From the NCBI GenBank assembly GCA_965662175.1, contig CBFIGT010000027.1, forward strand, positions 1 to 23,391: 23,391 nt of DNA, read 5' to 3'. The notes beneath the pieces were generated by a model that saw only the letters and a list, made by a program, of their open reading frames with translations, was not told where the DNA came from and ran no database searches. The position numbers were made by a program, and so were the translations under genes. Position 1 is the first letter of the stretch; the number at the start of each line of letters is the position of its first letter. The stretch comes from Arcobacter sp. Its GTDB lineage: Bacteria; Campylobacterota; Campylobacteria; Campylobacterales; Arcobacteraceae. Shown here in pieces: positions 2,769 through 23,391 of this stretch.

Positions 2769-3887
2769 ATGTCGGATCTAATTAAGCTAAGAGATAAGGC
2801 AACTAAACTAAGTGCTTTAATCGTAGAAGATAGTTTAACTATTCAAAAACAAATGAAAATATTTTTAGAAAAACTATTTGAAAAAGTTTATGTAGCTTCT
2901 GATGGTTTAGAGGCTTTAGAGCTTGTAAAAAGAGTTAATCCTGACATTATTCTAACAGATTTACAAATGCCAAGAATGGATGGCCATGAATTTATAGAGA
3001 ATTTAAAAAAGATAAATGATTCATCAGAAATTATTGTTTTTTCAGCATATGGCCACTCTGAAAATGTAATAAAGTTTTTAAGAATGGGAATAACTGACTT
3101 TTTACAAAAGCCTGTAAATTTTACACAATTAACAACATCTTTGTTAAAAGCAATTAACAACTTAAATGGAACAAAAAATTATGATGAAGAGAGATTTGAA
3201 GATGAAGTTTTACAAGATTTAAAAATCATAAAAGATAGTAAAAGCAGTGTTCACTTGGTAAATCATTATAAAGGTCTTCCTTTAATCCATGATGGATTTA
3301 TAAGCTCAGTTACAAAAGAAACCATATCAATACAAACACAAAAAATACAAACAAGAGCAATAGTTTATGAAAAATCCACTACAATTGAGACTGATAAGTT
3401 TATACTACAAGCTTCACTGAAATTTCATGATACTAGAAATAATGAGCTAGTTTTATTTGATTTAAAAAAGATTCCAAGGTCACCTAGGGATAGAGAGGTT
3501 TTAAGAGTAGACCCAAGAGATAATTTTACTGCAACTATATTTTCTAGTACTGAAAGATATAATATCAAAGTTAAAGATTTATCAACAAAATCACTCTCTT
3601 TCAAAATCAAATATTTTGATGAAAGATTAAAAATTGATGATCAACTAAATTTAATTATGGGCTTTAATACCCTATATTCAACCTCATATCATAATACAAT
3701 TACCCACAAAGAAAGAGTTGATTGCAAAGCTAAAATTTACAGAATAGAAGATCTTGGTAATAGCGAAACTAAAATAGTTATTTTATTTGATTTAAATCCT
3801 GCAAATAAAAAAATATTAGAAAAATATATTTATCAAAGGGAGATTGAAATCATCAAAGAGTTCAAACAACTCTCTTTTGACACATAA
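2769..3887 (+). CDS. Response regulator, receiver domain plus C-terminal PilZ-like domain
   Basis: REC motifs 'LIVEDS', 'ILTDLQMPRMDG', 'FSAY', 'FLQKP'. The C-terminal part has RxxxR ('REVLR') followed by 'DLSTKS' and the Campylobacterota-type tail 'LEKYIYQREIEIIKEFK'. The ATG directly abuts the kinase stop codon. Confidence 0.85.
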   Translation: MSDLIKLRDKATKLSALIVEDSLTIQKQMKIFLEKLFEKVYVASDGLEALELVKRVNPDIILTDLQMPRMDGHEFIENLKKINDSSEIIVFSAYGHSENVIKFLRMGITDFLQKPVNFTQLTTSLLKAINNLNGTKNYDEERFEDEVLQDLKIIKDSKSSVHLVNHYKGLPLIHDGFISSVTKETISIQTQKIQTRAIVYEKSTTIETDKFILQASLKFHDTRNNELVLFDLKKIPRSPRDREVLRVDPRDNFTATIFSSTERYNIKVKDLSTKSLSFKIKYFDERLKIDDQLNLIMGFNTLYSTSYHNTITHKERVDCKAKIYRIEDLGNSETKIVILFDLNPANKKILEKYIYQREIEIIKEFKQLSFDT

Positions 3888-3955
3888 ATAAACATTATTT
3901 ATATACAAATTATCTCTTTATTAATATAAACTAAAATCAATAAAGGAGATATTAT

Positions 3956-4735
3956 ATGAAAGTTGTATTAACAATTGCTGGAAGTGATAGCAGTGGTGGA
4001 GCGGGTATTCAAGCTGATTTAAAAACTTTTGAAGCCTTTGGAGTGTTTGGTTGTAGTGTTATTACAGTTTTAACAGCACAAAATACAAAAGGTGTTAGCC
4101 AAATACAAGAGTTACCTGCTTCTTTCATAAAAGCACAAATAGCTGCTGTTTTAGATGATTTTGATGTGGCTTGCATAAAAATTGGTATGCTTTTTTCAAA
4201 TGATATAATCAATGCTGTTATTGAGTCAATAAAAGATTTAAATATTCCTATTGTTTTTGACCCTGTATTTATATCAAAAGCTGGTTCTAAACTTTTAAAT
4301 GAAGATGCCATAGAGAACTTAAAAAATATTTTAGCTTTTTCTACAGTTACGACACCAAATTTATATGAAGCAAAAGAGCTTTTTTCATATGAGTTTGAAA
4401 ATAGTAACTCCCTAAATGGAGTTTTTAACTCTCCTTGCAAAGTTTTAATCAAAAATCAAATTATGGAAATAAATAATAAAAAAATATCTGTTGATAGCTT
4501 GTATAATGGAAAAGAAAAAAGAGAATTCAAATCAGATTTTATAGAGACTGAAAATCTTCACGGTACAGGATGTAGTTACTCAAGTGCAATTGCTGCAAAT
4601 TTAGCAAGGGGAAAAACACTTGAAGAGGCTATTGCCATATCTAAAGAGTTTATTTATCAAGCTATTAAAAACGCTCCAAATATAGGCCATGGAAAAGGTC
4701 CAATAGCACATAAAATAGGTTCTCAACTATGCTAA
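3956..4735 (+). CDS. thiD: Hydroxymethylpyrimidine/phosphomethylpyrimidine kinase
   Basis: 'LTIAGSDSSGGAGIQADLKTF', 'KIGML', 'DPV', 'TPNLYEA', 'HGTGCSYSSAIAA'. SD AAGGAG upstream. Confidence 0.95.
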   Translation: MKVVLTIAGSDSSGGAGIQADLKTFEAFGVFGCSVITVLTAQNTKGVSQIQELPASFIKAQIAAVLDDFDVACIKIGMLFSNDIINAVIESIKDLNIPIVFDPVFISKAGSKLLNEDAIENLKNILAFSTVTTPNLYEAKELFSYEFENSNSLNGVFNSPCKVLIKNQIMEINNKKISVDSLYNGKEKREFKSDFIETENLHGTGCSYSSAIAANLARGKTLEEAIAISKEFIYQAIKNAPNIGHGKGPIAHKIGSQLC

Positions 4736-5346
4736 ATGGTTTATATGTTATTACAGATAATAAATTAACTCCAAACAAAACTATTTTAAAACAAATAGAA
4801 CAAAGCCTAAAAGCAGGAGCTAAAATAGTTCAATTAAGAGATAAAAAGAATAGTATTGAAACTATTGAAAAGCTAGCTATTTCTATTCAAGATTTATGTA
4901 AAAAGTATAATGCCCTATTTGTTTTAAATGATGAAATAGAGTTAGCTATAAAACTAAAATGTGATGCTCTTCATATTGGAAAAAGTGACCATCACAACTT
5001 TGAAAAGATAAGAAAAGAGTTTAAAGGTATTATTGGAGTTTCCTGTTATGGAAATCTATCTTTAGCAAAAGAGTTTGAACTAAAAGGTGCAAATTATGTC
5101 GCTTTTGGTTCATTTTTTTCATCACCTACAAAACCACAATCAACTATAGTTCCATTTGATGTTTTAACAAAAGCAAAAGAGAGTTTGAGTATTCCTATTT
5201 GTGCAATTGGTGGAATTAATAGTGAAAATGTAAATAAATTACTAAAGTATAAACCTGATATGATTGCTTTAATAAGTGATATTTGGAGTGATGATATTAC
5301 AAAAAAAACAAATTTTTATAATAATATTTTAAAAGGAAAAGAATGA
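4729..5346 (+). CDS. thiE: Thiamine-phosphate synthase
   Basis: 'GLYVITD', 'VQLRDK', 'LNDE...DALHIGKSD', 'GVSCY', 'YVAFGSFFSSPTK', 'AIGGI'. Overlaps the end of thiD. Confidence 0.94.
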   Translation: MLNGLYVITDNKLTPNKTILKQIEQSLKAGAKIVQLRDKKNSIETIEKLAISIQDLCKKYNALFVLNDEIELAIKLKCDALHIGKSDHHNFEKIRKEFKGIIGVSCYGNLSLAKEFELKGANYVAFGSFFSSPTKPQSTIVPFDVLTKAKESLSIPICAIGGINSENVNKLLKYKPDMIALISDIWSDDITKKTNFYNNILKGKE

Positions 5347-5699
5347 AAGCCTTAGTTTTAATTGCCCACGGAAGCAAAAAAAAACAATCAAATGATGAAT
5401 TTAGAGAGTTAGTAGGATTAATAAGAGAACAAAACTCAGATAAATATGAGAAAATAATAGCCTCATTTTTAGAGATGGAATCCCCAAGTATTACAAATGT
5501 AGTTAAAGAGTTATCCTCAAAAAAAGTTAGCTCAATTACTTTTTATCCATTTTTCCTAAATTCAGGAAAACATGTAATAGTTGATATTCCAGATATTGTA
5601 GAAGAGTTAAAAAAAGAGTATCCAAATATTGAGTTTAAAATACTTCCTCATTTTGGACAATCATCTAAAATTGTTTCAATAATATCTCAAGATATATAA
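5343..5699 (+). CDS. Small single-domain CbiX/SirB-family (CbiX-S-like) tetrapyrrole chelatase
   Basis: 'LIAHGS', 'FLEMESPSI', 'PFFLNSGKHVIVDIP' include the two metal-binding His of class II chelatases. ATGA overlap with thiE. Confidence 0.85.
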   Translation: MKALVLIAHGSKKKQSNDEFRELVGLIREQNSDKYEKIIASFLEMESPSITNVVKELSSKKVSSITFYPFFLNSGKHVIVDIPDIVEELKKEYPNIEFKILPHFGQSSKIVSIISQDI

Positions 5700-5700
5700 A

Positions 5701-5744
5701 CTAACATTTTTTAGCTACTAATTTTTAAGCTCTTATTTTATACT
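5701..5744 (+). promoter_or_regulatory. Putative regulated sigma70 promoter: motif CTAACA-N5-TAGCTA, 21 nt, -10 TATACT
   Basis: CTAACA at 5701-5706, TAGCTA at 5712-5717, TATACT at 5739-5744. Same architecture as the sites at 10484-10527 and 14989-15032. Confidence 0.6.
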
Positions 5745-5765: not shown

Positions 5766-6668
5766 TTGAATATAGCAATAATTGGTGCGGGAATTAGTGG
5801 TTGTAACATCTATAATAGACTAAAAAAACAAAATCACAATATTACTATTTTTGATAAAGCTAGGGGAGTTGGTGGTAGATTATCAACTAAATATGTTGAT
5901 GATAAGTTTATAGACCATGGAACTTCAAGCTTTAAAGTCAATAATAGTTTATTTAAAGAGTTTTGTGATGAACTTATTTCAAATAAGATATTAATAAAAA
6001 AAGATGATGAATATTTTCCACTAAATGGTATAAATAAATTATGTTCATACTTAATAAATAAAAATGATTTAATAAAAAACCAAAGAATAACAAAAGCTGA
6101 GTTTATAGATAATAAGTGGAGCTTGATAAGTGAAGATGGCAATAAATATGATAGTTTTGATAAACTAATCATCACAATACCAACTCCACAAATACTACAA
6201 ATGCATATAAATCTAAGTGAAAATACAAAAAATTTATTAAATAGTGTAAGTTATGATAGCGTTGCAACGTTAATTTGCTATAGTAACAATATTATAAATT
6301 TAGAGCATCCAAAACTTTTTGAATCAGCACTATTTTCAAAAATTATAAATAACTCTAAAAAATATAACTACAAAAAGTTTTCAAGTTATGTTTTTCATAC
6401 AAATAGTGAATTTGCAAATAGTATTAATGAGTTATCAAAAGAGAAGATTGGCAAAAAAATCTACAAAAAAATTGAAGACTTGATTGGTGTTAATTTAGAT
6501 GAAGAGTGTTATACAGTTCCCCATCTTTGGAAATATGGAAAAGTTAAAAGCTATCTAAGTCAAGATTTTATATATGAAAATAGTTTGGGAATTTGTGGTG
6601 ATTATTTCAATGGAAATAGTTTGGAAAGTGCATATATTAGTTCAACAAAACTAAGTGCCAATATATAA
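5766..6668 (+). CDS. Renalase-like NAD(P)/FAD-dependent oxidoreductase (COG3380-type)
   Basis: Rossmann motif 'IAIIGAGISG', 'FDKARGVGGRLST', 'DHGT', 'PTPQ', 'HLWKY', 'GICGDYF...LESAYIS'. TTG start. Confidence 0.85.
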   Translation: MNIAIIGAGISGCNIYNRLKKQNHNITIFDKARGVGGRLSTKYVDDKFIDHGTSSFKVNNSLFKEFCDELISNKILIKKDDEYFPLNGINKLCSYLINKNDLIKNQRITKAEFIDNKWSLISEDGNKYDSFDKLIITIPTPQILQMHINLSENTKNLLNSVSYDSVATLICYSNNIINLEHPKLFESALFSKIINNSKKYNYKKFSSYVFHTNSEFANSINELSKEKIGKKIYKKIEDLIGVNLDEECYTVPHLWKYGKVKSYLSQDFIYENSLGICGDYFNGNSLESAYISSTKLSANI

Positions 6669-6683
6669 ATATAAGGAAAAAAG

Positions 6684-6947
6684 ATGTTAAAAGAGTTACT
6701 AAACACAGGGTTTGGAGCAGCTGCTATTTTAAAAGAGAAAATAGAAGAGGAGATGAAAACCTTAGAAGATAAAGGGAAAATCAAAAAAGAGGATGCAAAA
6801 TCTTTTTTAGAATCTTTAGAAAAAAAAGGTAAAGAAGAGGAGCAAAAAGCAAAAGATGAGATTAAAAAGCTTTTAAAAGAGGCAATTGATGAGTTAGGAC
6901 TTGCTACAAAAGAGGACTTAGCAAAATTAAAAGAGGATTTAAAATAA
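6684..6947 (+). CDS. Phasin-like/PHA-granule-associated (COG3937-type) small coiled-coil protein
   Basis: 'GFGAAAILKEKIE...KGKIKKEDAK' and 'LGLATKEDL' pattern, helical and highly charged. SD AAGGA upstream. Adjacent to an ABC1 kinase, a common pairing. Confidence 0.75.
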   Translation: MLKELLNTGFGAAAILKEKIEEEMKTLEDKGKIKKEDAKSFLESLEKKGKEEEQKAKDEIKKLLKEAIDELGLATKEDLAKLKEDLK

Positions 6948-8479
6948 ATCATTATTCACCAAAAAGAGTATTAAGTGTTTTTCTTTTTTTACTTACAATT
7001 TATTTAGTTATAAAAAGAAAAGATAGCTTTCTATTTTTAAAACCATTAAAGCCAAAAAAGCTAAAACATACTATTGTTAATTTGGGAGCTAGTTTTATAA
7101 AATTAGCTCAAGTACTAGCTACTAGGTCTGATTTTTTTTCAAAAGAGTATTTAGATGAATTAAAAGATTTACATGACCAAATTCCAGCTATGAACAAAAG
7201 CTCCTTTGATAAAATTTTTTACAGAGCATTTAGTGATAATAGCTTTGAAAAGTTTGATAAAAAACCAATTGCTTCTGCTTCCATTGGACAGGTTCATGTG
7301 GCTTATTTGAAAACAGGAGAAAAAGTTGCTGTAAAACTTAGACGAGATGGAATTAAAAAACAGGTTTTAGCCGATATAAAAATCATAAACTTTTTTAATC
7401 TAATCTTTAAACCTCTTTTTTCACACTATACAAAAAACTCAATAGAAGCCGTAATTGTAGAGTTTTCAAAGATGATAAAAGAGGAAGTTAGTCTTACAAA
7501 AGAGCTACAAAATCTACAAAAATTTTCCCATGTTTATAAAGATAGTGCTGTAAAATTTCCAAAAGCTTATGAAGAACTCTCTTGTGATGATGCTATTGTT
7601 ATGAGTTTTGAAGAGGGTTTTAGATTTGATGATAAAGAGAATATTTTTAAACACAATATTGATTTTAAAAAGATAATTGCAAATTTGGTTGATTTTTACA
7701 CTACACAAATGCTTATAAATGGATATTTTCACGCAGACCCACATCCAGGGAACTTACTTGTAAACAAAAGAGGTGAGTTAATCTTACTTGATTTTGGGAT
7801 GGTAAAAACTGTACCAAATGATAAAAGAATAGCTATTATTGAGCTTATAAAAGCAGCAAACGACCAAGATTATGAGCTTTATATAAATGCTAGCAAAAGA
7901 TTAGGAACTATCTCTTATGAAGCACCAACCTCTGAATTAGCTCTTTTTACCCAATCTATGTTTGATATTTTTTCAAATGATAATTTATCAAGTGAATCAA
8001 TGCAACAATTAGCTTTTGAAGTTTTGGAAACCACAAGAAATCTACCCTTTAAACTTCCAAGTGATGCAATATATATCTTAAGAGTGAGTGCTATTATTGA
8101 GGGATTAGGTACAACTTATATCGAAAACTTCAATGGAATAAAAGATATTTTACCAATCTTACAAAAAAATCTTCCAAAGGCATTGGGAGCAAAAGAGAGT
8201 ATAACTGAGACTATAATTGATGAGATAAAAGATTTACCTTTTTTTGTAAAAGATTTAAAAACTGTAATAAAAAAAGCTAGTGAGGGAAATCTTGAGATTG
8301 AGCTTTCAAACAATCAACTAAGCTATATTGCAAAAGAGTTAAAAGATTATACAAAAAGCACTCTAAGCTCTTTTGTAATTATTTTTTCAAGTTTTTTTGT
8401 GATACTTTATGATAAAGATTTAAAAGAGTTGGCTTTGGCTTTATTTGTAATTGGGGCTATAAAACTTATTTATAAATAA
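6944..8479 (+). CDS. ABC1/AarF/UbiB-family atypical kinase (start probably the non-canonical ATA at 6944, not TTG 7082)
   Basis: 'LGASFIKLAQVLATRSD', 'ASASIGQVH', 'VAVKLRR', 'FHADPHPGN', 'LLDFGM', plus two C-terminal hydrophobic segments. The frame is open upstream of 7082 back to a stop at 6890. Confidence 0.88.
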   Translation: MNHYSPKRVLSVFLFLLTIYLVIKRKDSFLFLKPLKPKKLKHTIVNLGASFIKLAQVLATRSDFFSKEYLDELKDLHDQIPAMNKSSFDKIFYRAFSDNSFEKFDKKPIASASIGQVHVAYLKTGEKVAVKLRRDGIKKQVLADIKIINFFNLIFKPLFSHYTKNSIEAVIVEFSKMIKEEVSLTKELQNLQKFSHVYKDSAVKFPKAYEELSCDDAIVMSFEEGFRFDDKENIFKHNIDFKKIIANLVDFYTTQMLINGYFHADPHPGNLLVNKRGELILLDFGMVKTVPNDKRIAIIELIKAANDQDYELYINASKRLGTISYEAPTSELALFTQSMFDIFSNDNLSSESMQQLAFEVLETTRNLPFKLPSDAIYILRVSAIIEGLGTTYIENFNGIKDILPILQKNLPKALGAKESITETIIDEIKDLPFFVKDLKTVIKKASEGNLEIELSNNQLSYIAKELKDYTKSTLSSFVIIFSSFFVILYDKDLKELALALFVIGAIKLIYK

Positions 8480-8512
8480 AAAAATAGGAGATATTAAATT
8501 TGTAACTTTAAT

Positions 8513-8539
8513 AGGGAGTAGTTAAAACTTCTACTCCCT
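8513..8539. terminator. Hairpin between convergent ABC1-kinase and hemH genes, probable bidirectional terminator
   Basis: AGGGAGTAG (8513-8521) and CTACTCCCT (8531-8539) form a perfect 9-bp inverted repeat. Confidence 0.7.
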
Positions 8540-8546
8540 TTAAAAA

Positions 8547-9479
8547 CTAAACAGCCTTATTATATAGTTCAACTAAAGTTTCCATAAAATATGGATGATG
8601 ATTAGGAGCTTTACAAACTCTATAATCTTTTATTCCAACCTCATCAGCTATCTCTTTATACTCAATAACTAGCTCAAACTCTGTTTCTGAATTATCAACT
8701 GTAAATGAAACAGGATAAACTATAACTTTTTCTTTTCCTAACTCTTTTAGTTTATCATCCATATATGGACGTAACCACTCAAGAGGTCCAAGTCTTGATT
8801 GGTAAGCAACTTGAATATCTTTAAACTTTATACCCTGTTTATTTAACTCTTTTTTAGCAGCTTCAACATTTGCTAAAATATGTTTTTGATAAAGGTCACC
8901 TTTATCTATAGTTCTTTTTGTTAAACCATGGGCTGAAAATAGTAATACAAACTCTTCACTATTATCCTTACCTATACACTCTTTGATTCTTTCAACTATT
9001 GCTTTATTGTAGTTTTCATTATCATAATATGAATCAACTGTTTTAATCTTAGCTTTTATACCTTGTTTTTTTACAGCCTTTTCAAAATCCTCAATTGATG
9101 ATTTTGTAGTTGTACTTGAATAGTGTGGATACATAGGGAGTGCTACTATTTCATCATACTCTTTTAGTTTTTGAACAACCTCTTTTGAAAAAGGTGGAGT
9201 ATATCTCATCACATGAAAAACATCAGCATCAAGTACTCTATTCAGTCTTCTAACAAGTCTTTTTGTATGTCCAACAATAGGTGACATTCCACCAAGTTGT
9301 GCATAATTCTCTTTTGCCTCTTTTGTTCTTAAAGTAGTAATTAAAAGACCTATCATAGCTCTTATTGGTTGTGGAGCTCCAATAATATATTTATCATTGA
9401 ACATATTTGTTAAAAATACTTTTACCTCATCTAAATTATTTGGTCCGCCCATATTCATTAGCACAACTGCTTTTTTCAT
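8547..9479 (-). CDS. hemH: Protoporphyrin ferrochelatase
   Basis: 'LMNMGGP', 'FLTNMFND', 'MRYTPP', 'LPMYPHYSSTTT', 'LFSAHGL', 'YQSRLGPLEWLRP', 'SFTVDNSETEFEL'. Confidence 0.96.
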   Translation of the reverse strand: MKKAVVLMNMGGPNNLDEVKVFLTNMFNDKYIIGAPQPIRAMIGLLITTLRTKEAKENYAQLGGMSPIVGHTKRLVRRLNRVLDADVFHVMRYTPPFSKEVVQKLKEYDEIVALPMYPHYSSTTTKSSIEDFEKAVKKQGIKAKIKTVDSYYDNENYNKAIVERIKECIGKDNSEEFVLLFSAHGLTKRTIDKGDLYQKHILANVEAAKKELNKQGIKFKDIQVAYQSRLGPLEWLRPYMDDKLKELGKEKVIVYPVSFTVDNSETEFELVIEYKEIADEVGIKDYRVCKAPNHHPYFMETLVELYNKAV

Positions 9480-9480
9480 C

Positions 9481-9930
9481 CTAATCCCTTATCTGTAATA
9501 ATTTTTTTGTTTGTTTATGTCTATATTCAAACATATTTTCTAGTTGATTTTCCATAAAGCCTGAGAATATATTTCCCAAAAAACCAAAAGGCAACTCATA
9601 CTCAACCACATCTTTTAACTCACAAACATCACCTTTTTTTGTGAAAATGTGTGAATGTCTCCAAAAACTAAATGGAGATTTTATAGCTGTATCAACTAGC
9701 ATATTTGGCTCTTTTATCAAAGAAATCTCTACACTCCAAATAGTTGGAATAAAAAATTTTGTAGTTTTTATATTTAAAACTTCACCCTCTTTTGCAACAA
9801 AGTTTTTATTTAAAAGTTCAACTTTTGTATCTTTTGGAGTAATTTTTTGTATATTATTTGAGTCCAAATGAAAGGCGAAAAGCTTCTCAATAGGACATGA
9901 TATTAATGTTTTTTTTTCATATTTTTTCAT
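9481..9930 (-). CDS. SRPBCC (START-like lipid/ligand-binding) family protein, COG4276-type
   Basis: 'LFAFH...NIQKITP', 'W...I...VD...SPFSFWRHSHIF', 'LKDVVEYELPFGFLG', 'MFEYRH'. ATGA overlap with the peroxidase. Confidence 0.85.
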   Translation of the reverse strand: MKKYEKKTLISCPIEKLFAFHLDSNNIQKITPKDTKVELLNKNFVAKEGEVLNIKTTKFFIPTIWSVEISLIKEPNMLVDTAIKSPFSFWRHSHIFTKKGDVCELKDVVEYELPFGFLGNIFSGFMENQLENMFEYRHKQTKKLLQIRD

Positions 9931-10460
9931 AATAACTCTAAAATATCTTTTTCAATTTCACTAGGTTCTGTTGATGGTGCATATCTTTTTATAACTTCAC
10001 CTTTTTGGTTAACTAAAAACTTTGTAAAGTTCCATTTGATTATTTTACTACCCAAAAAACCTGGTTCTTTCTCTTTTAAGTACTGATATAGTGGATGTGT
10101 ATTTTTACCATTTACATCTATTTTACTAAACATATCAAATTTCACATCATAATTTAGTGAACAAAACTCTTTTATCTCCTCTTCTGTTCCAGGTTCTTGT
10201 GATAAGAACTGATTACAAGGAAAACCTAAAATACTTAAGCCCTTTGAAGCATATTTATTATGTAAGTTTTGTAAGCCCTCATATTGATAGGTATATCCAC
10301 ACTTACTAGCCACATTTACAACTAAGATAACTTTATCTTTATATTTTGATAAACTTATCTCTTCATTATCTATCGTTTTTACTTTTATATTATAAATATC
10401 CATATTTGCAACTCCTAATAAAGGAATAAGAAAAAGAAATAAACTTATTAATTTTTTCAT
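9927..10460 (-). CDS. Cys-type glutathione peroxidase family protein with N-terminal signal peptide
   Basis: 'VNVASKCGYT' (peroxidatic Cys), 'GFPCNQF...QEPG', 'FC' resolving-Cys position, 'KWNFTKFLV'. N-terminus MKKLISLFLFLIPLLGVA resembles a Sec signal. SD AAGGAG. Confidence 0.94.
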   Translation of the reverse strand: MKKLISLFLFLIPLLGVANMDIYNIKVKTIDNEEISLSKYKDKVILVVNVASKCGYTYQYEGLQNLHNKYASKGLSILGFPCNQFLSQEPGTEEEIKEFCSLNYDVKFDMFSKIDVNGKNTHPLYQYLKEKEPGFLGSKIIKWNFTKFLVNQKGEVIKRYAPSTEPSEIEKDILELL

Positions 10461-10483
10461 AGAAACTCCTTCTATTTTTAATT

Positions 10484-10527
10484 ATTTTATCATGAAATAA
10501 TAAGAGTTAATAGTTGTATTCTGTAAG
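10484..10527 (-). promoter_or_regulatory. Putative regulated sigma70 promoter: motif CTTACA-N5-CAACTA, 21 nt, extended -10 TG-A-TAAAAT
   Basis: Minus strand reads CTTACA GAATA CAACTA TTAACTCTTATTATTTCATGA TAAAAT upstream of the peroxidase SD. Confidence 0.68.
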
Positions 10528-10528
10528 T

Positions 10529-11239
10529 TTAAAGACTTCTTCTATCTAAATACTCCCTAAACTCTTTAGCTCCATCTTTAGAACTTGTTACTATTGAATC
10601 AATATCTTCAAAACTAATAGTTAGTTTTGATTGCTCTACGCTTTCCATTGATTTAATTTTATCAACATTTACTATAATTGACCTATGAATTCTAAAAAAC
10701 TTTTTCTTATCAAGAAGTTTTTCCAAATCTCCTATTTTTCTTTTTACATAAACATCTGTATCTTTTATACGAATTATAACCTCATCTAAATCAGCTTTTA
10801 TAAAATATATATCATCTATTTTTATTAAATATATTTTATTTCCCCTTTTTCCTAAAAGTTTTTCATCACTTTGATTACCACTTTGTTTAAAGGCTTTAAT
10901 TTTTTCAAAAACTCTTTTTATTTCACTATTCTCAACAGGCTTTAATAAATAATCAATTCCACCTATTTTAAAAGCCTCAATTGCATACTCACTATAAGCT
11001 GTTTGAAATACAATAAAAGTTTTTGGCTCAATTGAAAGAATAGTATTAGCTAGCTCTAAACCACTCATTTGAGGCATTGATATATCCATAAATATAACAT
11101 CAAACTTTGTTTTTGTAGCTTCAACTAAAGCTTCAGTTGGAGAGTTGAAACTCTTTATATCTTCATAACCCTCATCATTTAAAAGTCTTGTTAATCTACT
11201 TATTGCTAACTTTTCATCATCTACTATCATTATCTTCAT
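10529..11239 (-). CDS. LytR/AlgR-family response regulator (REC + LytTR DNA-binding domain)
   Basis: 'IVDDEKLA', 'FMDISMPQMSGLE', 'FQTAYSEYAIEAF...DYLLKP'. LytTR signature 'FFRIHRSIIVN'. Confidence 0.95.
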   Translation of the reverse strand: MKIMIVDDEKLAISRLTRLLNDEGYEDIKSFNSPTEALVEATKTKFDVIFMDISMPQMSGLELANTILSIEPKTFIVFQTAYSEYAIEAFKIGGIDYLLKPVENSEIKRVFEKIKAFKQSGNQSDEKLLGKRGNKIYLIKIDDIYFIKADLDEVIIRIKDTDVYVKRKIGDLEKLLDKKKFFRIHRSIIVNVDKIKSMESVEQSKLTISFEDIDSIVTSSKDGAKEFREYLDRRSL

Positions 11240-12225
11240 ACATCACTCCTGTGAATTGTAAATTTCATTTTATTATTTTCAATTGAACTCTTTAAATAAC
11301 CTATTTTTAATATTTTTAATCTTTTTTGCAAATTATTAAGTCCAACTCCAAAAACCACATTTGAGGTAATTTTTCCACTATTTACTACTTCTATTCTATC
11401 GGCTTTTACATTAACATCTATTTTTAAATTATCACCCACAAAACCATGTTTTATTGCATTTTCTGCAAGTAATTGAATTGAAAACTTAGGTAGAAGCATA
11501 TCATAATATTTTTCATCACAATTTACATTAAACTCTATTTTCTCATCAAACCTAATATTTTCTATATGTAAATAGGTTTTTACCATTTCTATTTCACTCT
11601 TTAAATCAATCAAACCTTTTTTAGTAATTGCATTTCTTAAAAACTTTGAGAGTTTTAAAACAGACTCTTCTGCTCTTTTTTGGTCTTGATAAATAAGCTC
11701 TGAAATTGAGTTTAAGGCATTAAATAAAAAATGAGGATTTAATTCACTCTCCAAAGCTTCTAGTTTTGTCTCCAAAATCTCACTATTTGCTAACTCATTT
11801 TTGTATTTCATTGAGATAAATTGATGTAAAATCAAACCAATTAAAAATGTCAAAAGTCCTATAGTCATACTAATTGAAAACCAATATGGCTCTATTAAAC
11901 TAACTATTGGAATACTATTTGGAAATAGTAAATATGCTAAAAAAAATCCAAACCAACCAGCTAAAAAAGAGAAAAAGAAACTAATCAAATACCAAAACTT
12001 TTTATTTAAATTTGGCAAAATATAGTAGTTTGAAATGGAGATAAATAAAAAAGAGTTAAAAGAGATTAAAAAAGCACAAAAGGTTGAAAAAAGTATTGTA
12101 GAGATAAAACGAAGCTGCTCATTTATATAATAAAAAACAAGTGAAATTAAAAAACCAAAAAAAATCCCGATTATTATTATATAAACCCAATCTTTTATAG
12201 ATATTTTTAATTCAAAATCTTTCAT
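11236..12225 (-). CDS. LytS/YehU-type (His_kinase family) sensor kinase with about four TM helices and no large periplasmic domain
   Basis: H-box 'LNPHFLFNALNSI', 'YLHIENIRF', 'QLLAENAIKHG', 'GVGLNNLQKRL'. The N-terminal ~135 aa are hydrophobic. ATGA overlap with the regulator. Confidence 0.92.
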   Translation of the reverse strand: MKDFELKISIKDWVYIIIIGIFFGFLISLVFYYINEQLRFISTILFSTFCAFLISFNSFLFISISNYYILPNLNKKFWYLISFFFSFLAGWFGFFLAYLLFPNSIPIVSLIEPYWFSISMTIGLLTFLIGLILHQFISMKYKNELANSEILETKLEALESELNPHFLFNALNSISELIYQDQKRAEESVLKLSKFLRNAITKKGLIDLKSEIEMVKTYLHIENIRFDEKIEFNVNCDEKYYDMLLPKFSIQLLAENAIKHGFVGDNLKIDVNVKADRIEVVNSGKITSNVVFGVGLNNLQKRLKILKIGYLKSSIENNKMKFTIHRSDV

Positions 12226-13633
12226 TTAACTCCTTGTTTAAAACCTTTGCACCAAGTGCAACTCCAGGCCAACCTTGACCTGCAAATATAGTATCACCAA
12301 CATTATATAAACCTTTAAAAGGTGTTTTACAAGATGGCGTTGCTAAAATTGTTTTTGCATTTATGGAACTTCCTCCACAATTTACTCTTCCAATATATCT
12401 TTGAAAAGTCATACTTGTAGCACTAAATGCTTTTGTTATTTCTTCAGCTCTTATATTATCAAAATAAGCCAAAAACTCTTTTATTAAAAACTCTTGAGTT
12501 TTGTTTTTCTCTTTTTTATACTCATCTTTTGATAAGTTTTTCCAAAAAAGTGCTTTTGTATGGCTTGAAATAGTTACTGAGTATCCATTTTTACTAAGTT
12601 TTTCATCTTCAAGTTTTGAAAAAGAGATAAAAAATGAGTTTGAGATACAATTTGGAATATCATTATTTAAAATTATTTGATAATGTTCTAAAAAGGCTTC
12701 TTTACTGTTTATTGTTAAATATAAGGTAAAAGCACTTTGATCTGAAAATTTAAAACTATCATAATATTTATATATTTTAGTATCAAAGAAAAGCTCTTTT
12801 GTATCATAAATTGTAGAGTTTAAAACAACATTTTTTGCAAAATATTTATCTTTGTTACTTACTAGTAAATATCCATCATCTAATCTCTCTATATATTTTA
12901 TCTCTTCATTATTTTGAACATTTACACCTTTTAAAATTCCCTCAATAATATTTCCCATACCTTTATTTGCATAAAATACCTTATGAAAAGGGTAAGAAAG
13001 TCCTAAAGCCATAGATAAAAGCGACACATCTTTTGACTTACTTTGAACTGTTATTAAAAGTTGTGCATCAATAAAACTTTGATACTCTTTTGAAATATCC
13101 CCTAAATTTTCTTTTATAAAACTACTAGCACTTTTAAATAAATCTATTTTAAATGTACTTAATAAACCAATAAATGATTTTAGACTTTTAATATAAGCAT
13201 TTATGCTATGTTTTACAAAATATATATCTTTTTGTTGCCAAAACTTTTCATCTATCTCTTTGATTTTTGACCAAAAAGCTCTATTGTTTTTATTTGGATA
13301 TAAACTATCTATTTTGGCTAAAAACTGTTCAAAATCTTGAATCCTATCCAAAACTTTTCCATTTTGAACTGTTCTTATTGCTATTTGGGACTCTTTTATA
13401 TCAGGTTTAAATCCTATTTCATCAAATATCTCTTTTATAATATGATTATCTTCATAACCTACAAAAGTAGTTGCCCCAGCATTATAATAATTCCCATATC
13501 GCTTAAAAGTACTTGCACATCCACCAAGATTATTATCTTTTTCAAAAAGTATATGATTTTTCTCTTTGTTTAAAGCAGCTATCAAAGCCCCGCCAATTCC
13601 AGAGCCAACTATTGCTAAATCAAGCTTTTTCAT
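12212..13633 (-). CDS. Phytoene-desaturase/CrtD-like FAD-dependent oxidoreductase (COG1233-type)
   Basis: 'IVGSGIGG', 'FEK...LGGCASTFKRYG...NAGAT', 'ATSMTFQRY...G', C-terminal 'TPFKGLYNVGDTIFAGQGWPGVALGA'. Confidence 0.82.
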   Translation of the reverse strand: MKKLDLAIVGSGIGGALIAALNKEKNHILFEKDNNLGGCASTFKRYGNYYNAGATTFVGYEDNHIIKEIFDEIGFKPDIKESQIAIRTVQNGKVLDRIQDFEQFLAKIDSLYPNKNNRAFWSKIKEIDEKFWQQKDIYFVKHSINAYIKSLKSFIGLLSTFKIDLFKSASSFIKENLGDISKEYQSFIDAQLLITVQSKSKDVSLLSMALGLSYPFHKVFYANKGMGNIIEGILKGVNVQNNEEIKYIERLDDGYLLVSNKDKYFAKNVVLNSTIYDTKELFFDTKIYKYYDSFKFSDQSAFTLYLTINSKEAFLEHYQIILNNDIPNCISNSFFISFSKLEDEKLSKNGYSVTISSHTKALFWKNLSKDEYKKEKNKTQEFLIKEFLAYFDNIRAEEITKAFSATSMTFQRYIGRVNCGGSSINAKTILATPSCKTPFKGLYNVGDTIFAGQGWPGVALGAKVLNKELNERF

Positions 13634-14966
13634 TTTTTGCCATTTTAAAAGAGTCTATTGCTTTTTGTCGACTTAATTTTATATCAACAATTGGAGGGAT
13701 ATAGTATGAAAAAAGTCCATTACTTAAAGCACCCTCTTTATGAAAAAGTTTTGAATCCACATCTTTTAGACTTGGAATTACACTTTTTATAAAAATCCCA
13801 TCTTTATCAAATTTTTCAGATTGAGAATAGGGATTAAAAACTCTAAAATATGGAGCCGCATCAGCTCCTGTACTAGCACTCCACTGCCATGAACCAATAT
13901 TTGAACTAGCCTCATAATCAAGAAGTTTTGAAGCAAAATACTCTTCTCCTCTTCTCCAATCTATAAAAAGATTTTTTGTCAAAAATGAAGCAACTATCAT
14001 TCTTAGACGATTTGGCATTGTTCCTGTTTTATTTAGGTGTATCATTGCAGCATCTACAATTGCCACCCCTGTTTTTCCCTCGCACCACTTTATAAAATCA
14101 TCCTCATTTTGATTCCAGTTTAGATTAATTCCATTCCAGTTTTGATTTTCACTTTTTGGAAAATGGTATAAAATATAGTTAAAAAACTCTCTCCAAAAAA
14201 GTTGTCTTATAAAGACCTCTACATTTTTGTGATTTGATTTTTTATATTTATTAAATAGTATTCTAGGGCTTATTGTTCCAAATCTTAAATCAACTCCTAA
14301 ATTTGAGGTTCCATCTTTATAAAAAATATCTCTATTATCTTTATATTCATCTAGTTTTTCTTCAAAGCTATCTACTCTCTCTTTTACACTTAAGGTAAAA
14401 AACTTCTCCAAACTAGCTTTTTTAAAGCCCATCTCTTCTAAACTTGGTATCTCTTTTTTTTCATATTTTATTAGTTTGATATTTGGATTTATTTTTGACT
14501 CAGTTAATTTTGAACTCTCCCATAACCAAGAAAGAGATTTATAAAAAGGTGTAAATACTTTATAAGGGGTTTTATCAGCTTTCAAAGCCTCATTTGGATG
14601 GGTTAAAAAAGAGTCATAAAATCTTCTCATAGGAATAATTTGCTCAATCTCTTCATCTCTTTTTTTTGCATATGAATCAAAATCACAAGAGCATAAGACC
14701 TCATCAAAACCCATAGGTTTTAAGCTATTAAAAACATTTTTAGCTTCATCATAAAAAACATATAAATCAAGTCCAAGATTTTGTAAAGATTTTTTTAAAT
14801 TTAAAACAGCATCATAAATAAAAGTAACTCTTTTATCATCACTTTTTAATTTAGATAAAATGTTTTTATCAAATATAAAAATAGGCATCACTTTGCCACT
14901 AGATTGCTCTAATATTTTATTATCTTCAACTCTTAAATCTCTTCTAAACCAAACTATTTGTTTCAA
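13620..14966 (-). CDS. phrB: Deoxyribodipyrimidine photolyase (class I CPD photolyase-like)
   Basis: 'VWFRRDLRVEDN', 'PYKVFTPFYK', 'RQLFWREF', 'WCEGKTG..IVDAAM', 'NRLRMIVASFLTK', 'IDWR.GE.YF', 'NIGSWQWSASTGADAAPYFRVFNP..QSEKFD'. TTG start with SD AGGGA. Confidence 0.94.
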   Translation of the reverse strand: MKQIVWFRRDLRVEDNKILEQSSGKVMPIFIFDKNILSKLKSDDKRVTFIYDAVLNLKKSLQNLGLDLYVFYDEAKNVFNSLKPMGFDEVLCSCDFDSYAKKRDEEIEQIIPMRRFYDSFLTHPNEALKADKTPYKVFTPFYKSLSWLWESSKLTESKINPNIKLIKYEKKEIPSLEEMGFKKASLEKFFTLSVKERVDSFEEKLDEYKDNRDIFYKDGTSNLGVDLRFGTISPRILFNKYKKSNHKNVEVFIRQLFWREFFNYILYHFPKSENQNWNGINLNWNQNEDDFIKWCEGKTGVAIVDAAMIHLNKTGTMPNRLRMIVASFLTKNLFIDWRRGEEYFASKLLDYEASSNIGSWQWSASTGADAAPYFRVFNPYSQSEKFDKDGIFIKSVIPSLKDVDSKLFHKEGALSNGLFSYYIPPIVDIKLSRQKAIDSFKMAKNEKA

Positions 14967-14988: not shown

Positions 14989-15032
14989 ATAATATAGGAA
15001 CAATAAGATTTTTGGTAGTTGAAATTTGTAAG
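14989..15032 (-). promoter_or_regulatory. Putative regulated sigma70 promoter: motif CTTACA-N5-CAACTA, 21 nt, -10 TATTAT
   Basis: Minus strand reads CTTACA AATTT CAACTA CCAAAAATCTTATTGTTCCTA TATTAT upstream of phrB. Both hexamers are identical to those at 10511-10527. Confidence 0.68.
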
Positions 15033-15038
15033 ATAATG

Positions 15039-16352: not shown

Positions 16353-16688
16353 CTACTTTCTGTTTAAACTACAATAATAATTTTCTAATATCTCACATTT
16401 AGTACACTCCAAGGTTCTTTCATCTTTTTCACAAGAAACACAAGGACTTGATTGAGTAAAATCTCTTTTTACAAAGCAATTTGGATTATTAACAGCCATA
16501 TAAGATACATTTTCCACAGGGTCATAGGCTAGTTTCTCCAGTAATTCAGGTGATGAATTTTTATTTCTAGCAACTGCTCTTCTTATATTAGCATCCATAT
16601 TTAATGTGAGTATATTTAAAATATCTAAACTACTAGTACTCTTTGCTATATTTAAAAGCTCTTCTTTTGGCATAACTTGAGTATTCAT
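16353..16688 (-). CDS. Small protein with leucine-rich-repeat-variant (LRV/HEAT-like) repeats and C-terminal CxxC-x8-CxxC
   Basis: 'NIRRAVARNKNSSPELLEKLAYDPVENVSYMAVNNPN' is LRV-like, followed by 'CVSCEKDERTLECTKC'. ATG 16688 has SD AAAGGA, so it is preferred over the TTG 16724 in the ORF track. Confidence 0.72.
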   Translation of the reverse strand: MNTQVMPKEELLNIAKSTSSLDILNILTLNMDANIRRAVARNKNSSPELLEKLAYDPVENVSYMAVNNPNCFVKRDFTQSSPCVSCEKDERTLECTKCEILENYYCSLNRK

Positions 16689-16715
16689 TTTACATCCTTT
16701 AAATTTAATAATAAA

Positions 16716-16747
16716 ATTATACAATAAAAAAGTGTTAAAAAAGTGTT
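16716..16747 (-). promoter_or_regulatory. Promoter of LRV gene: -10 TATAAT with a perfect 11-bp tandem repeat immediately upstream
   Basis: Plus strand TAAAAAAGTGT occurs twice (16725-16735 and 16736-16746). Minus-strand TATAAT at 16716-16721. Confidence 0.55.
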
Positions 16748-16850: not shown

Positions 16851-19625
16851 TTATTTTATCTCTTTGGTAAACTCCTCAAAAAGATAAGTGGAAAGGGGTT
16901 TTTCTAACTTTAACTCTAACTCTATGGGTCTGTTATTTTTATATTTATGATTTTTTGCAAGACCTAAATATATAAAATTTTGTACTTTTTTATCAACATG
17001 TGAAAATTTCCTTACAAAAATATGAAGTTTTACTCCAAATTTATCAATATTTATCAATTTTTCACCATCACCTTTATCAATTGACATACTTGGTTTGCTA
17101 ATATAAGTAAAACGCTCTTTGTCTAAAAAGTCATTTTGATATTTTGAAGCTTTTGAAAACTTATCCTTTTCAATAGTAATAAAAAGAAAAAAGTCATTTT
17201 GGTATTTTAAAAATCCGCTTCCCCTAAAAGAGCTATGTATTTTTGGAAAATTACAAAGTTTTGCAATATTTAACATATTATAAGATTCATAAAGTTTTAA
17301 AAATGGTATTCCATAATCTTTTATACCAAAACTCTTTTCATAAACCAAAATCCCATAATTTATAAGATCTAAAAAATACTCTTTAAAGCTGCTATTTTCT
17401 AAAAGCTTTTTAAACTCTTTTGTTTTTATTAACTTTTCATCTTCAAACTCAACAAGTTTTAAAAATCTTCCAACTTGAGCACTATCATGAAACTCTTGAT
17501 TTAAAAATCTAAAACTATGATTTATACTCTCTTTTAATGGCTTTTCCAAATAGTTTTCAAGTACTTTAAATATGCTATTTTCATCACAAAAACTATTTTC
17601 ACAAAGATACTTAAGTATAGAAAATTCATATACTCTTTTTATAGGTAAAAGTGATTCTAGGAATCTACAAGCTTTTATAAAATCACTATTTTTACACATA
17701 AGAAGAAACTCATCTTTTTTTTCAACTTTTGCCAAGAACTCTATATAAGAGCGACTTTCACTAATAAAAGGAAGAGGTGAGATAAAATCATCATAAGCAA
17801 TATAATCCTCTAAAGTAGCTATTTTATTTCCTAAAATAGCTTTAAACTCAAAATATTTCTCTTTTAAATACTTCATACAATTAAAGTTTTCATCATCAAT
17901 TTGCTCTAATATTCTATTTTTAGAGATTTCATCCATACTTATATATGCATTTTTTATATTTGCAAAGTTATTTAAAATTGATAACTTTATACTCTCTTTA
18001 TCAATCTTTTTATTTCCCACTAATGCCAAAGCTATTAAATAAGCTTTTTTATGATTTCCAATAAAATCCAAAAGTGTCAAGAACTCTTTTTTATCACTTT
18101 TTCTAAGTCCACGTCCAAGTTGCTGTACAAAAATAATTGCTGAGTTTGTTGGTCTTAACATCAAAACTGTATTTATTGATGGAATATCAATCCCCTCATT
18201 AAAAATATCAACAGAAAAAATCACTTCCAAACTACACTTATCATTTTCAAGCTCTTTTATAATCTTTTCTCTTTTTTCTATTGAGTCATTACTTGTTAAA
18301 TAAGTTGAAACAACTCCTCTTTTATTAAACTCTTCACTCATATAAAAAGCATGCTCTTTTGAGACACAAAAAGCTAAAGCTTTTCTTTTATTTCCACTAA
18401 AACCATAAAAGTTCATCTTCTCTATTATAAAATCAACCCTTCTATTTACCATCAAAAGTTTTGCTAATAAATCTATTTTTGATAAATCTATTTCACTATA
18501 ATCTATAGATTCAATATCACTTATTCCATAATAATGAAATGGTGTAATAAGACTATTTTCCAAAGCATCATTTAGTCTTATATCACAAGCAATATTTTCA
18601 TCAAAAATATCATAAATAGATTTTTTATCACTTCTATTTGGAGTTGCTGTTAAACCTAATAAAAAACTTGGTTTAAAATACTCAATTACCTTTTCATATG
18701 AATTAGCGCTTATATGATGGGCTTCATCTACAACTATATAATCAAACTCTTTTTGAGAAAAGTTCTCATAATTTGAACTTAGGGTTTGAATAGTTGCAAA
18801 TATATAATCCTTTTCTAGCTCTTTTTTATTTCCTGTATATAATCCACAAGATTTATTTGAAATAATATTTTCAAAACTCTCTTTTGCTTTTATTAAAATA
18901 TTTTCCCTATGAACAATAAAAAGTGCCCTTTTTGCTTTGAAATTTTTTATATCAATTGCAGCTAAATATGTTTTTCCTGAACCCGTTGCTGCTATACATA
19001 AGGCTTTTGATTGATTGTTTTTTCTAAAAAAGTTTAATTTTTCCACTGCCTCTTTTTGCATATGATTTAAAATAAACTCTTTTTTATAAACAAACTTCTC
19101 TAAAACTTGTTTTTTACAAAATTCATCATAAGCCTTTATAAACTCTTCATCAACACTGAGTGAATTTTCAAATAATGAGTTAAACTCAAAAAAAATCTCT
19201 TTTGTAAAAATATCATCTTTTTTTGATATGCTTTTTATATTCCATTCGATATTTGTCTTAAAAGCACTAGCTGTTATATTTGAAGAACCAAGTAAAATCT
19301 TATACTCATTTTCATACTCAAAAATATAAGCTTTTGTATGAAAACCCCTATTTTCCATATTTGAATCATATATTTTCAACTCAATATTATCAAAGTTCAA
19401 TAAACTTAAAAGAGCTTTCCCTTGGGTAAAATTTAGATAAGTTGATGTTAGAATCTTCCCTTTAATACCTTTTTTTCTACAAGTTTCTAAGCTATCAAGA
19501 AGTAATTGAACTCCTGAAAAATTTACAAAAGCTACACTAAAATAGAAACTTTTACAATCTTTTAAAAGATTTGTAATATGATTATAAAAATTTGAAGCCT
19601 CACTATTTACAATAAGTTTATTCAA
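16851..19625 (-). CDS. PLD-nuclease / SF2 helicase / DUF3427 fusion, SauUSI-like type IV (modification-dependent) restriction enzyme
   Basis: PLD 'FHTKAYIF...GSSNITASA...NIEWN', Walker A 'ATGSGKT', 'DEAHH', 'LTATP', 'DIFNEGIDIP', 'QQLGRGLR', C-terminal 'FLFITIEK...YQNDF...LHIFVRK...FIYLG' (DUF3427-like). No adjacent methyltransferase. Confidence 0.85.
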   Translation of the reverse strand: MNKLIVNSEASNFYNHITNLLKDCKSFYFSVAFVNFSGVQLLLDSLETCRKKGIKGKILTSTYLNFTQGKALLSLLNFDNIELKIYDSNMENRGFHTKAYIFEYENEYKILLGSSNITASAFKTNIEWNIKSISKKDDIFTKEIFFEFNSLFENSLSVDEEFIKAYDEFCKKQVLEKFVYKKEFILNHMQKEAVEKLNFFRKNNQSKALCIAATGSGKTYLAAIDIKNFKAKRALFIVHRENILIKAKESFENIISNKSCGLYTGNKKELEKDYIFATIQTLSSNYENFSQKEFDYIVVDEAHHISANSYEKVIEYFKPSFLLGLTATPNRSDKKSIYDIFDENIACDIRLNDALENSLITPFHYYGISDIESIDYSEIDLSKIDLLAKLLMVNRRVDFIIEKMNFYGFSGNKRKALAFCVSKEHAFYMSEEFNKRGVVSTYLTSNDSIEKREKIIKELENDKCSLEVIFSVDIFNEGIDIPSINTVLMLRPTNSAIIFVQQLGRGLRKSDKKEFLTLLDFIGNHKKAYLIALALVGNKKIDKESIKLSILNNFANIKNAYISMDEISKNRILEQIDDENFNCMKYLKEKYFEFKAILGNKIATLEDYIAYDDFISPLPFISESRSYIEFLAKVEKKDEFLLMCKNSDFIKACRFLESLLPIKRVYEFSILKYLCENSFCDENSIFKVLENYLEKPLKESINHSFRFLNQEFHDSAQVGRFLKLVEFEDEKLIKTKEFKKLLENSSFKEYFLDLINYGILVYEKSFGIKDYGIPFLKLYESYNMLNIAKLCNFPKIHSSFRGSGFLKYQNDFFLFITIEKDKFSKASKYQNDFLDKERFTYISKPSMSIDKGDGEKLINIDKFGVKLHIFVRKFSHVDKKVQNFIYLGLAKNHKYKNNRPIELELKLEKPLSTYLFEEFTKEIK

Positions 19626-22938: not shown

Positions 22939-23391
22939 ATGAGTGGTACAGGCCATCTTATCCTAATGTTTGCTGAAGCTTTCTTTTTGTCAATATTTCT
23001 TTATATTTTAATACGTTTAAAGCCATGGCTTGGATTTAGTCCTTTATTTGTAACAGTAGGTTCGTTACAATTTGTTCAAGTAATACTTGCAATGAGTCTT
23101 TATATTGAAGTTTTCCCTGGCCTACTCATTAGTCCTGGTTCATCAGTATTTTTTGTAGGAACAATTTTAGGGGTATTACTTGTTTATATTGTAAATGATG
23201 CGTTAAGTACTAGGAAATTGATATATAGTTTATTAATTGCCAATGTATTTTTGAGTTTAATAACAATCTCAATAAGTCAACATTTTTTAGGAGAAGATAT
23301 TCATTTCTTTGTTGATTTACCTCGTGAAGTTTTTTTACAACACCCTAGAGTAATGATTGTTGGTACATTAGCATTATTTATTGACACTATT
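22939..23391 (+). CDS. Multi-pass membrane protein, VUT/YhhQ-like, truncated by the window edge
   Basis: ATG 22939 with SD AAAGGA and an open frame to the window end: MSGTGHLILMFAEAFF...ISPGSSVFFVGTILGVLLVYIVNDALSTRKLIYSLLIANVF...LQHPRVMIVGTLALFIDTI. At least five hydrophobic segments. Family assignment is from motif resemblance only. Confidence 0.75.
   Translation, partial: MSGTGHLILMFAEAFFLSIFLYILIRLKPWLGFSPLFVTVGSLQFVQVILAMSLYIEVFPGLLISPGSSVFFVGTILGVLLVYIVNDALSTRKLIYSLLIANVFLSLITISISQHFLGEDIHFFVDLPREVFLQHPRVMIVGTLALFIDTI

Follow-up and report, generated by a model that had tools for sequence, protein, structure and literature searches.

The photo-oxidative genes of Shewanella oneidensis are under the RpoE2-ChrR system, the cargo of which comprises pgpD-hemH2, ybgA-phrB-cfa and a photolyase-related gene; autoregulation and induction by oxidants are described in the available part of the source (PMC4336711). 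Named beside it are the sigmaE-ChrR system of Rhodobacter and ChrR of Vibrio cholerae. The window analysed here, i.e. the whole stretch of 23,391 nucleotides of contig CBFIGT010000027.1 from Arcobacter sp. (assembly GCA_965662175.1), carries a similar cargo around a histidine kinase and a receiver-LytTR response regulator. These two proteins are probably the master switch of an oxidative and photo-oxidative stress regulon, with predicted binding to a direct repeat and activation of sigma-70 promoters. This proposal builds on the observed genes, on the repeat, the spacing of which is fixed, on the targets of the repeat across the genome and its occurrence together with the pair, and on the stress induction of the A. 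butzleri orthologues.

Comparison with described systems

The locus and its unlinked targets share with RpoE2-ChrR a periplasmic gpx-hemH2, ybgA-phrB, cfa and a photolyase-related protein with a short-chain dehydrogenase; a likely autoregulation and the response to oxidants are further common traits. In contrast to that system, no extracytoplasmic function (ECF) sigma factor was found (the genome assembly is 94% complete, which applies to all genome-wide negative results given here), the promoters carry a sigma-70 -10 box and an upstream direct repeat in place of TGATCC/CGTAAT, a phosphorelay pair is present, and ovoA, thiDE, pdxH and an ABC1 kinase are extra targets. The LitR/CarH regulators, the operator of which covers the -35 region, resemble the locus in their photolyase and membrane-protection cargo, whereas the cargo here has no neighbouring gene that combines a MerR helix-turn-helix with a B12-binding or class II sensor domain.

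The likeness to the LytS/LytTR systems (BtsS/BtsR, YpdA/YpdB and LytS/LytR, and the AgrC/AgrA operator) consists of a PF06580 kinase core, a receiver-LytTR regulator, an imperfect direct repeat with a period of 21 bp and a half-site that is recognizable on the opposite strand. The differences relate to the four-helix sensor, the approximately nine target promoters versus one transporter, the stress-repair output and the coupled flavoenzyme; moreover, unlike in the AgrC/AgrA operator, the proximal half of the repeat overlaps the -35 position. LytTR regulators are described as activators (PMC5552118), and their operator as imperfect 9-bp direct repeats 12-13 bp apart (a 21-22-bp period) with the half-site [TA][AC][CA]GTTN[AG][TG] (PMC5600425, available part). 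The literature searched, in which subscription papers were mostly outside the search, yielded no account of the pair or the motif, the main texts of the A. butzleri genome and ECF papers included, and phr, hemH and cfa are unmentioned in the main text of the latter. The statement of the preliminary description that no example of such an arrangement was known is in line with this result.

The regulator operon and its promoter element

The pair is encoded at the end of an operon on the minus strand:

13620..14966, minus strand: phrB, class I cyclobutane pyrimidine dimer-type DNA photolyase, opening the regulator operon (PF00875 and PF03441; best NCBIfam match PRK10674, E 1.9e-90, below its cut-off)
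12212..13633, minus strand: CrtD/CrtH-like flavin adenine dinucleotide (FAD) oxidoreductase, hereafter the flavoenzyme, substrate not assigned, conserved core member (TIGR02733, 128.6 bits against a cut-off of 549.7)
11236..12225, minus strand: histidine kinase with a PF06580 core and four predicted membrane helices (Pfam, invariant residues, helix prediction)
10529..11239, minus strand: receiver-LytTR response regulator (Pfam; D52 invariant in 27 sequences)

An open reading frame (ORF) check of positions 5766..14966 located all eleven ORFs as first described, each with one stop, and confirmed the overlaps reported earlier: 14 nt between phrB and the CrtD-like gene, 14 nt between the latter and the kinase gene, and 4 nt between the kinase and regulator genes.

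An element common to three promoters of the window was first spotted by eye, and the same motif came out of an unseeded Gibbs search in relatives, run on 57 regions that follow the regulator gene. The matrix was built from 40 distinct sites from relatives, 36 of which show TAnnnT at a distance of 20 nt behind the proximal TAC. It finds four promoters in the window, each 68-70 nt before a start codon:

14989..15038, minus strand: phrB promoter, operator score 16.6, -10 box TATTAT
10484..10533, minus strand: gpx promoter, operator score 16.4, overlapping the stop codon of the regulator gene, -10 box TAAAAT
5695..5744, plus strand: promoter of the renalase-like gene, operator score 22.5, the highest in the genome, -10 box TATACT
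3883..3932, plus strand: thiD promoter, operator score 12.1, -10 box TAAACT, outside the interval of the preliminary description

Since gpx has a motif-bearing promoter of its own, it is not merely read through from phrB. Genome-wide, the matrix gives ten intergenic matches, four of them in the window, versus 0-2 for 12 column-shuffled matrices; two of the ten (on contigs C10 and C59) fit no cargo and are probably due to chance. Held-out promoters of relatives reach a score of at least 10 in 21/34 cases for ybgA, 8/10 for hemH, 7/9 for phr, 6/7 for the phasin-like gene and 4/4 for the lipocalin gene, compared with 11 of 290 promoters of other families. A generic promoter scan of the window remained at chance level, and an earlier strict pattern was too insensitive, catching one recurring match that is probably coding.

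The period of the element was obtained from columns outside the matrix. Among the 134 sites that do not adjoin the stop of the regulator gene, TA[TC] precedes the proximal TAC at a distance of exactly 21 bp in 82, against a background of 5.8%; the element is therefore a TAYNAA direct repeat with a two-turn period, and a 13-bp period considered before was dropped after this spacing analysis. The repeat spans about -56 to -30 and ends 17 bp before the sigma-70 -10 box, with the proximal half at -35 to -30 (positions relative to the predicted -10, derived from sequence and not from mapped starts). Read on the opposite strand, the distal half agrees with the LytTR consensus at 7.5 of 9 and the proximal half at 6.6 of 9 positions, the background being 4.6 and part of the excess being inflated by matrix selection. 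When 442 ordinary promoters of the genome are aligned, a conserved -35 is missing and TACnAA shows no enrichment at the 17-bp distance; its interpretation as a generic -35 box was dropped for this reason.

Occurrence of the element with the pair

The 151 genomes of the family comprise 100 with the LytTR gene (99 full matches and one at a contig end; one sub-threshold match was scored absent, and one of the 100, G240, appears to hold an unrelated LytTR protein) and 51 without it. A fixed pattern of the motif occurs 3.96 times per genome in the former, versus 1.34 for the reversed control, and 1.08 times in the latter, versus 1.49; the excess disappears without LytTR, also inside one genus. The preliminary description had placed the cargo under LytS/LytTR control, and this tracking of the LytTR gene by the motif across the family supports the prediction. 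A photolyase is present in 96/100 genomes with LytTR and in 13/51 without it, two ferrochelatases in 59/99 and 7/52, and the flavoenzyme in 95/100 and 5/51, respectively. Photolyase loci of genomes lacking LytTR in the class-wide sample have no site in 11 of 11 cases, one of them with nearly the full cargo. Among 11 further genomes of the family without LytTR, seven have no site, two a weak and two a strong one (G317, in 200 contigs, and G334, in one contig).

Comparison of 63 kinase loci shows the regulator in 61, the flavoenzyme in 57, photolyase in 44, the SRPBCC gene in 34, hemH in 32, thiD in 17, gpx in seven and the renalase-like gene in one. After removal of a distant Cellvibrio locus and of incomplete loci, the flavoenzyme gene is no more than 8 kb away from the kinase gene in 53 of the 54 loci that can be tested and directly adjoins it in 40, while photolyase is found in 39/47 and the contiguous order phr-flavoenzyme-kinase in 29/47. 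Named loci with the module include Aliarcobacter, Halarcobacter, Poseidonibacter, Sulfurovum, Sulfurospirillum and Sulfurimonas. In the class-wide sample the regulator occurs in 13 of 221 genomes, with 0/71 and 0/93 in the two largest families. These counts show that the flavoenzyme-kinase-regulator core is conserved in Arcobacteraceae and some other Campylobacterota, as a synteny search suggested by the preliminary description confirmed, and that the surrounding cargo is shuffled. A metagenome scan of 2 of 64 parts gave the flavoenzyme in 4 of 80 loci, none pointing outside Campylobacterota, which is weak evidence. In two higher-GC metagenome loci (L163 and L216) a cfa homologue adjoins a distant LytS/LytTR pair.

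Kinase, regulator and flavoenzyme

The kinase core matches PF06580 (E 2.9e-24), and H165, E255, N256, G284 and G295 are invariant in 32 sequences; the nearest relatives are kinases of named Arcobacter, at 79-82% identity. The 5TM-5TMR_LYT (PF07694) and GAF input domains, by which LytS is defined (PMC5552118), gave no Pfam match, and no extracellular, GAF or PAS domain was found in the protein. Four hydrophobic membrane helices with short loops lead directly to the DHp helix, and the sensor region contains the invariant polar residues D12, W13, N66, W78, S86 and T126. The name LytS, given to the kinase at first, fits its core only, and the sensor is of a family-specific four-helix type. In the ESM Atlas this region has Bacteroidota look-alikes only, at a borderline value (0.90). 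The regulator is the sole LytTR protein found in the genome.

The flavoenzyme had been described as a CrtD-like desaturase. It belongs to the same fold family as the CrtD/CrtH desaturases and isomerases, the best solved relative being the gamma-carotene desaturase 4REP (E 2e-11), but its score lies far below the cut-off of the CrtD model and no phytoene synthase (PF00494) was found in the genome; the role of a CrtD carotenoid desaturase was rejected on both grounds. Generic desaturase-like clusters were returned by the ESM Atlas, and structure prediction of a flavoenzyme-kinase complex scored 0.01.

Regulon members and other genes of the window

The remaining features of the window are as follows:

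9927..10460, minus strand: glutathione peroxidase gene gpx, product likely periplasmic like Shewanella PgpD (PF00255; residues 1-23 hydrophobic)
9481..9930, minus strand: SRPBCC-like protein (weak PF03364 match, E 7e-4; in 34/63 loci)
8547..9479, minus strand: hemH2, second ferrochelatase (Pfam and NCBIfam; a 46%-identical paralogue lies on contig C67)
8507..8545, no strand: inverted repeat at the point where hemH2 and ABC1 converge, likely used as a terminator by both genes (repeat search)
6944..8479, plus strand: ABC1/UbiB-family atypical kinase, likely with an ATA start coupled to the upstream stop (PF03109)
6684..6947, plus strand: small phasin-like protein, always paired with ABC1 (label of the preliminary description, no Pfam match)
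5766..6668, plus strand: renalase-like FAD oxidoreductase, accessory, in 1/63 related loci
3956..5699, plus strand: thiD-thiE-cbiX operon, likely a fourth regulon unit (thiD in 17/63 and thiE in 14/63 loci; 13 motif sites before thiD)

The gpx-SRPBCC-hemH group begins after a gap of 68 nt behind the regulator gene and converges on the renalase-like, phasin-like and ABC1 genes, in the order and orientation reported earlier. Most of the gene labels were borne out by Pfam (photolyase, amine-oxidase-type flavoprotein, His_kinase PF06580, receiver and LytTR, GSHPx, ferrochelatase and ABC1), with the exceptions of the phasin-like gene and of the marginal SRPBCC match. LOV, BLUF, B12-binding or sigma domains were not detected by Pfam in the proteins of the window. 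The ABC1 frame is open from ATA at 6944, overlapping the phasin-like stop (6944-6947), and not from 7082. The same ATA/stop overlap is seen in most of 23 ends of phasin-like genes compared in relatives (L002-L006, L062, L070, L081-L084, L091, L092, L115, L118, L128 and L135), and this conservation across genera suggests that a rare start codon is likely under selection.

Outside the window, the motif precedes the genes for a DASH cryptochrome, pdxH-photolyase-related protein-radical SAM/DUF4130, lipocalin-DUF2805 and ovoA, and it is present with a looser -10 before the operon COG2907-DUF1365-cfa. In relatives it also stands before genes encoding EAL, NMT1-like, LRV-repeat and chemoreceptor-like proteins. 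Sites at the chemoreceptor-like gene or the EAL phosphodiesterase gene (L134:3368-4600, L136:4724-5956, L123:8523-9578) hint at a motility or cyclic di-GMP output. The recurrence of thiD-thiE, and of the NMT1-like gene in relatives, as regulon members suggests thiamine salvage after photo-oxidative loss. Weak conserved motif-like sites with scores of 8-9 before uvrA and nrdB (L131:5752, L102, L101) possibly belong to another factor; both genes were rejected as members, as they are not induced in A. butzleri.

Three further genes of the window were noted. The LRV-repeat protein at 16353-16724 lacks the motif, and its homologues in L043, L050 and L123 carry strong sites. A PLD-helicase-DUF3427 protein (16851-19625) is unrelated to the regulon and is possibly a defence gene, and a VUPS-domain membrane protein (22939-23391) is interrupted by the contig end.

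Expression of the orthologues in A. butzleri

Expression values were taken from supplementary table S2 of a published RNA-seq study of A. butzleri RM4018 (PMC11334517), a source available in part, as are all data of that study cited here. Stressed cells received 1 mM paraquat for 25 min and controls were sampled at the opening of the jar, so that air or light during the additional 25 min may contribute to the differences. The gene order in RM4018 is ybgA-phr-flavoenzyme-kinase-LytTR-EAL-small protein-ABC1, with log2 induction of 4.4, 4.2, 4.1, 1.8, 1.3, 2.8, 2.2 and 1.9, respectively; in locus L228, which has the same gene order, an internal site lies where this series rises again behind the regulator. 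The lipocalin unit (3.1), the unlinked cfa operon (3.5-4.4) and ovoA (2.6) respond likewise. Among the genes listed in the table, no induction was seen for the single hemH, a housekeeping gene, or for uvrA, nrdAB, pdxH, one thiE and the genes of the radical SAM and TIGR01777 proteins; a second thiE was lower under stress.

The orthologous operons are thus induced 4- to 21-fold, in agreement with the stress response expected by the preliminary description. Its positive autoregulation holds insofar as the motif stands at the phrB promoter and the orthologues of kinase and regulator are themselves induced; the effect is modest, 2-3.5-fold versus 17-21-fold for the genes upstream. The same study lists 14 genes that still respond without CemR, at least eight of which come from the ybgA-phr and cfa operons, and its authors assign the CemR-independent genes to other factors, none being named in that section.

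Proposed mechanism

In the proposed mechanism the stimulus perceived by the kinase would lie within the membrane and would most likely be oxidative damage or a lipid that has been oxidised or modified; it is probably not a photon, because the kinase is devoid of a chromophore-binding domain. Under stress, a phosphoryl group would pass from H165 of the kinase to D52 of the regulator, and a regulator dimer would bind the distal half TAT-N-AACTDACA together with the proximal half TAC-N-AA. The latter, placed at the -35 position that is not conserved in ordinary promoters of this genome, would allow the recruitment of RNA polymerase. The predicted outputs are dimer repair by three photolyase-family proteins, peroxide removal by Gpx and ovothiol, clearance of photosensitising protoporphyrin by HemH2, membrane lipid modification (the cfa operon, lipocalins and the ABC1 kinase) and cofactor salvage (thiDE and pdxH). 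As the pair lies downstream of its own target, a modest positive feedback may be expected. For the predicted membrane signal a parallel exists in Rhodobacter, in the lipid enzymes of the regulon that sigmaE activation requires (PMC3546557, available part) and in the furan fatty acid pathway (PMC7380195, available part).

Several observations weigh against this mechanism. The compared genomes are kin, so p-values are overstated and were given no weight. Two genomes without the pair retain a site: G226 has a weaker one (11.1), and G334, which lacks kinase, regulator and flavoenzyme, has one scoring 18.7 before ybgA-phr. A close relative of G334 differs from it by a 13.8-kb block that contains the pair and is absent from G334, the flanks being joined, and the site may plausibly be a relic after a recent loss. 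Conversely, the pair is present and photolyase has no site in 4 of 5 distant genomes and in G322, G331 and G227, and 2 of 7 distant regulator loci have none. The ybgA gene of the present genome lacks a site as well. The overlap of the proximal half with -35 also departs from AgrA, the repeats of which are located further upstream than that element. Promoter sites of RM4018 were judged from the same-order loci L228 and L127 and not from RM4018 DNA. When CemR is deleted, basal expression goes up and the induction is weaker (PMC11334517).

Alternative explanations

The explanation that survives best is an addition to the proposed mechanism, in which the flavoenzyme is a third signalling component that makes, removes or senses (by means of its flavin, possibly with light) the membrane molecule read by the kinase. 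It is the tightest partner of the kinase (53/54 loci, 95/100 LytTR genomes), it stays when photolyase is elsewhere, it is translationally coupled, and no carotenoid pathway was found for it to serve. In Rhodobacter, lipid enzymes of the regulon are required for the activation of sigmaE (PMC3546557, available part). Nevertheless, kinase, regulator and sites persist in two genomes that lack the flavoenzyme (G321 and G327), the flavoenzyme occurs in two others where the pair is missing (G226 and G244), the kinase is preceded by other genes in two distant loci, and the enzyme is induced like the cargo (log2 4.1), so the idea can be offered only tentatively.

A repressor is improbable. The regulator would then cover the -35 position until stress switches the kinase to a phosphatase mode and releases it, which is consistent with the proximal half lying exactly at -35 to -30, and repressors such as LitR/CarH do bind at -35. 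Ordinary promoters of this genome, however, have almost no -35 consensus, and the -10 offset is 20 in 36 of 40 sites; a weak -35 consensus with a fixed phase to -10 fits activator contact better than repression, in agreement with the activator role described for LytTR regulators (PMC5552118).

It is very improbable that the motif is the binding site of another factor, such as CemR or some unlinked regulator, and that the pair is cargo with a different task. The sites kept in G334 and G226 and the shift of basal and induced levels upon CemR deletion would be accounted for in this way. Opposed to it are the loss of the motif excess without LytTR, also within one genus, the LytTR period and consensus of the repeat, and the fact that at least eight of the 14 CemR-independent induced genes belong to the regulon proposed here (PMC11334517).

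Other regulators were searched for in the genome. The preliminary description had noted that no light-sensor domain, RpoE or LitR is present, which holds for the window, and the genome search proposed there gave a single Sigma70_r2 match (a 655-aa RpoD), no Sigma70_r4_2 match and no LitR. Only one MerR gene was detected, beside a DnaJ-like gene, and we take it to be HspR-like. A search with a pattern for the LOV motif gave no convincing protein. Elsewhere in the genome there is a stand-alone BLUF protein (G000:C12:16057-17537, L097), the gene of which is divergent from ybgA (DUF523/DUF1722), ybgA being outside the phrB operon. BLUF occurs in 16 of 151 genomes of the family, all 16 with LytTR. 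A CarH-like B12-binding protein without a DNA-binding domain (G000:C155:233-916, L098) was found with that query in 2 of 61 genomes; the gene after it resembles a sensor protein. Both are too rare to run a family-wide regulon and were ruled out as its regulator. A stand-alone protein with a double ChrR-type Cupin_7 domain lies behind an NADPH-dependent FMN reductase (G000:C197:164-1300, L099), with neither a sigma factor nor the motif.

Finally, a chance grouping of stress genes with an AT-rich artefact as motif, for which the 28% GC of the genome and the shuffled gene order between genera might speak, is negligible, as none of the controls (shuffled matrix, reversed pattern, spacing) reproduces the motif and unlinked motif-bearing operons are co-induced (PMC11334517, available part).

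Significance

If the kinase and the LytTR regulator activate these promoters, RpoE-ChrR and LitR/CarH would be joined by a third way of regulating the same photo-oxidative genes, and the regulator would be the first of this kind proposed for Campylobacterota within the literature searched. The LytS/LytTR family would gain a sensor of a new type and a regulon with several targets. The pair is also a candidate to explain the stress response that persists without CemR in the genetically tractable A. butzleri and was not accounted for there, and the ligand of its compact membrane sensor could reveal how bacteria detect oxidised membranes. A bolder and rather doubtful possibility is that, in Campylobacterota of sunlit, oxygenated water, the flavoenzyme, the four-helix kinase and the LytTR regulator form a three-component sensor that reads membrane damage by singlet oxygen or light and took over the whole RpoE-ChrR regulon. 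If true, it would give access, by way of a phosphorelay, to the as yet unknown membrane signal behind the singlet-oxygen response.

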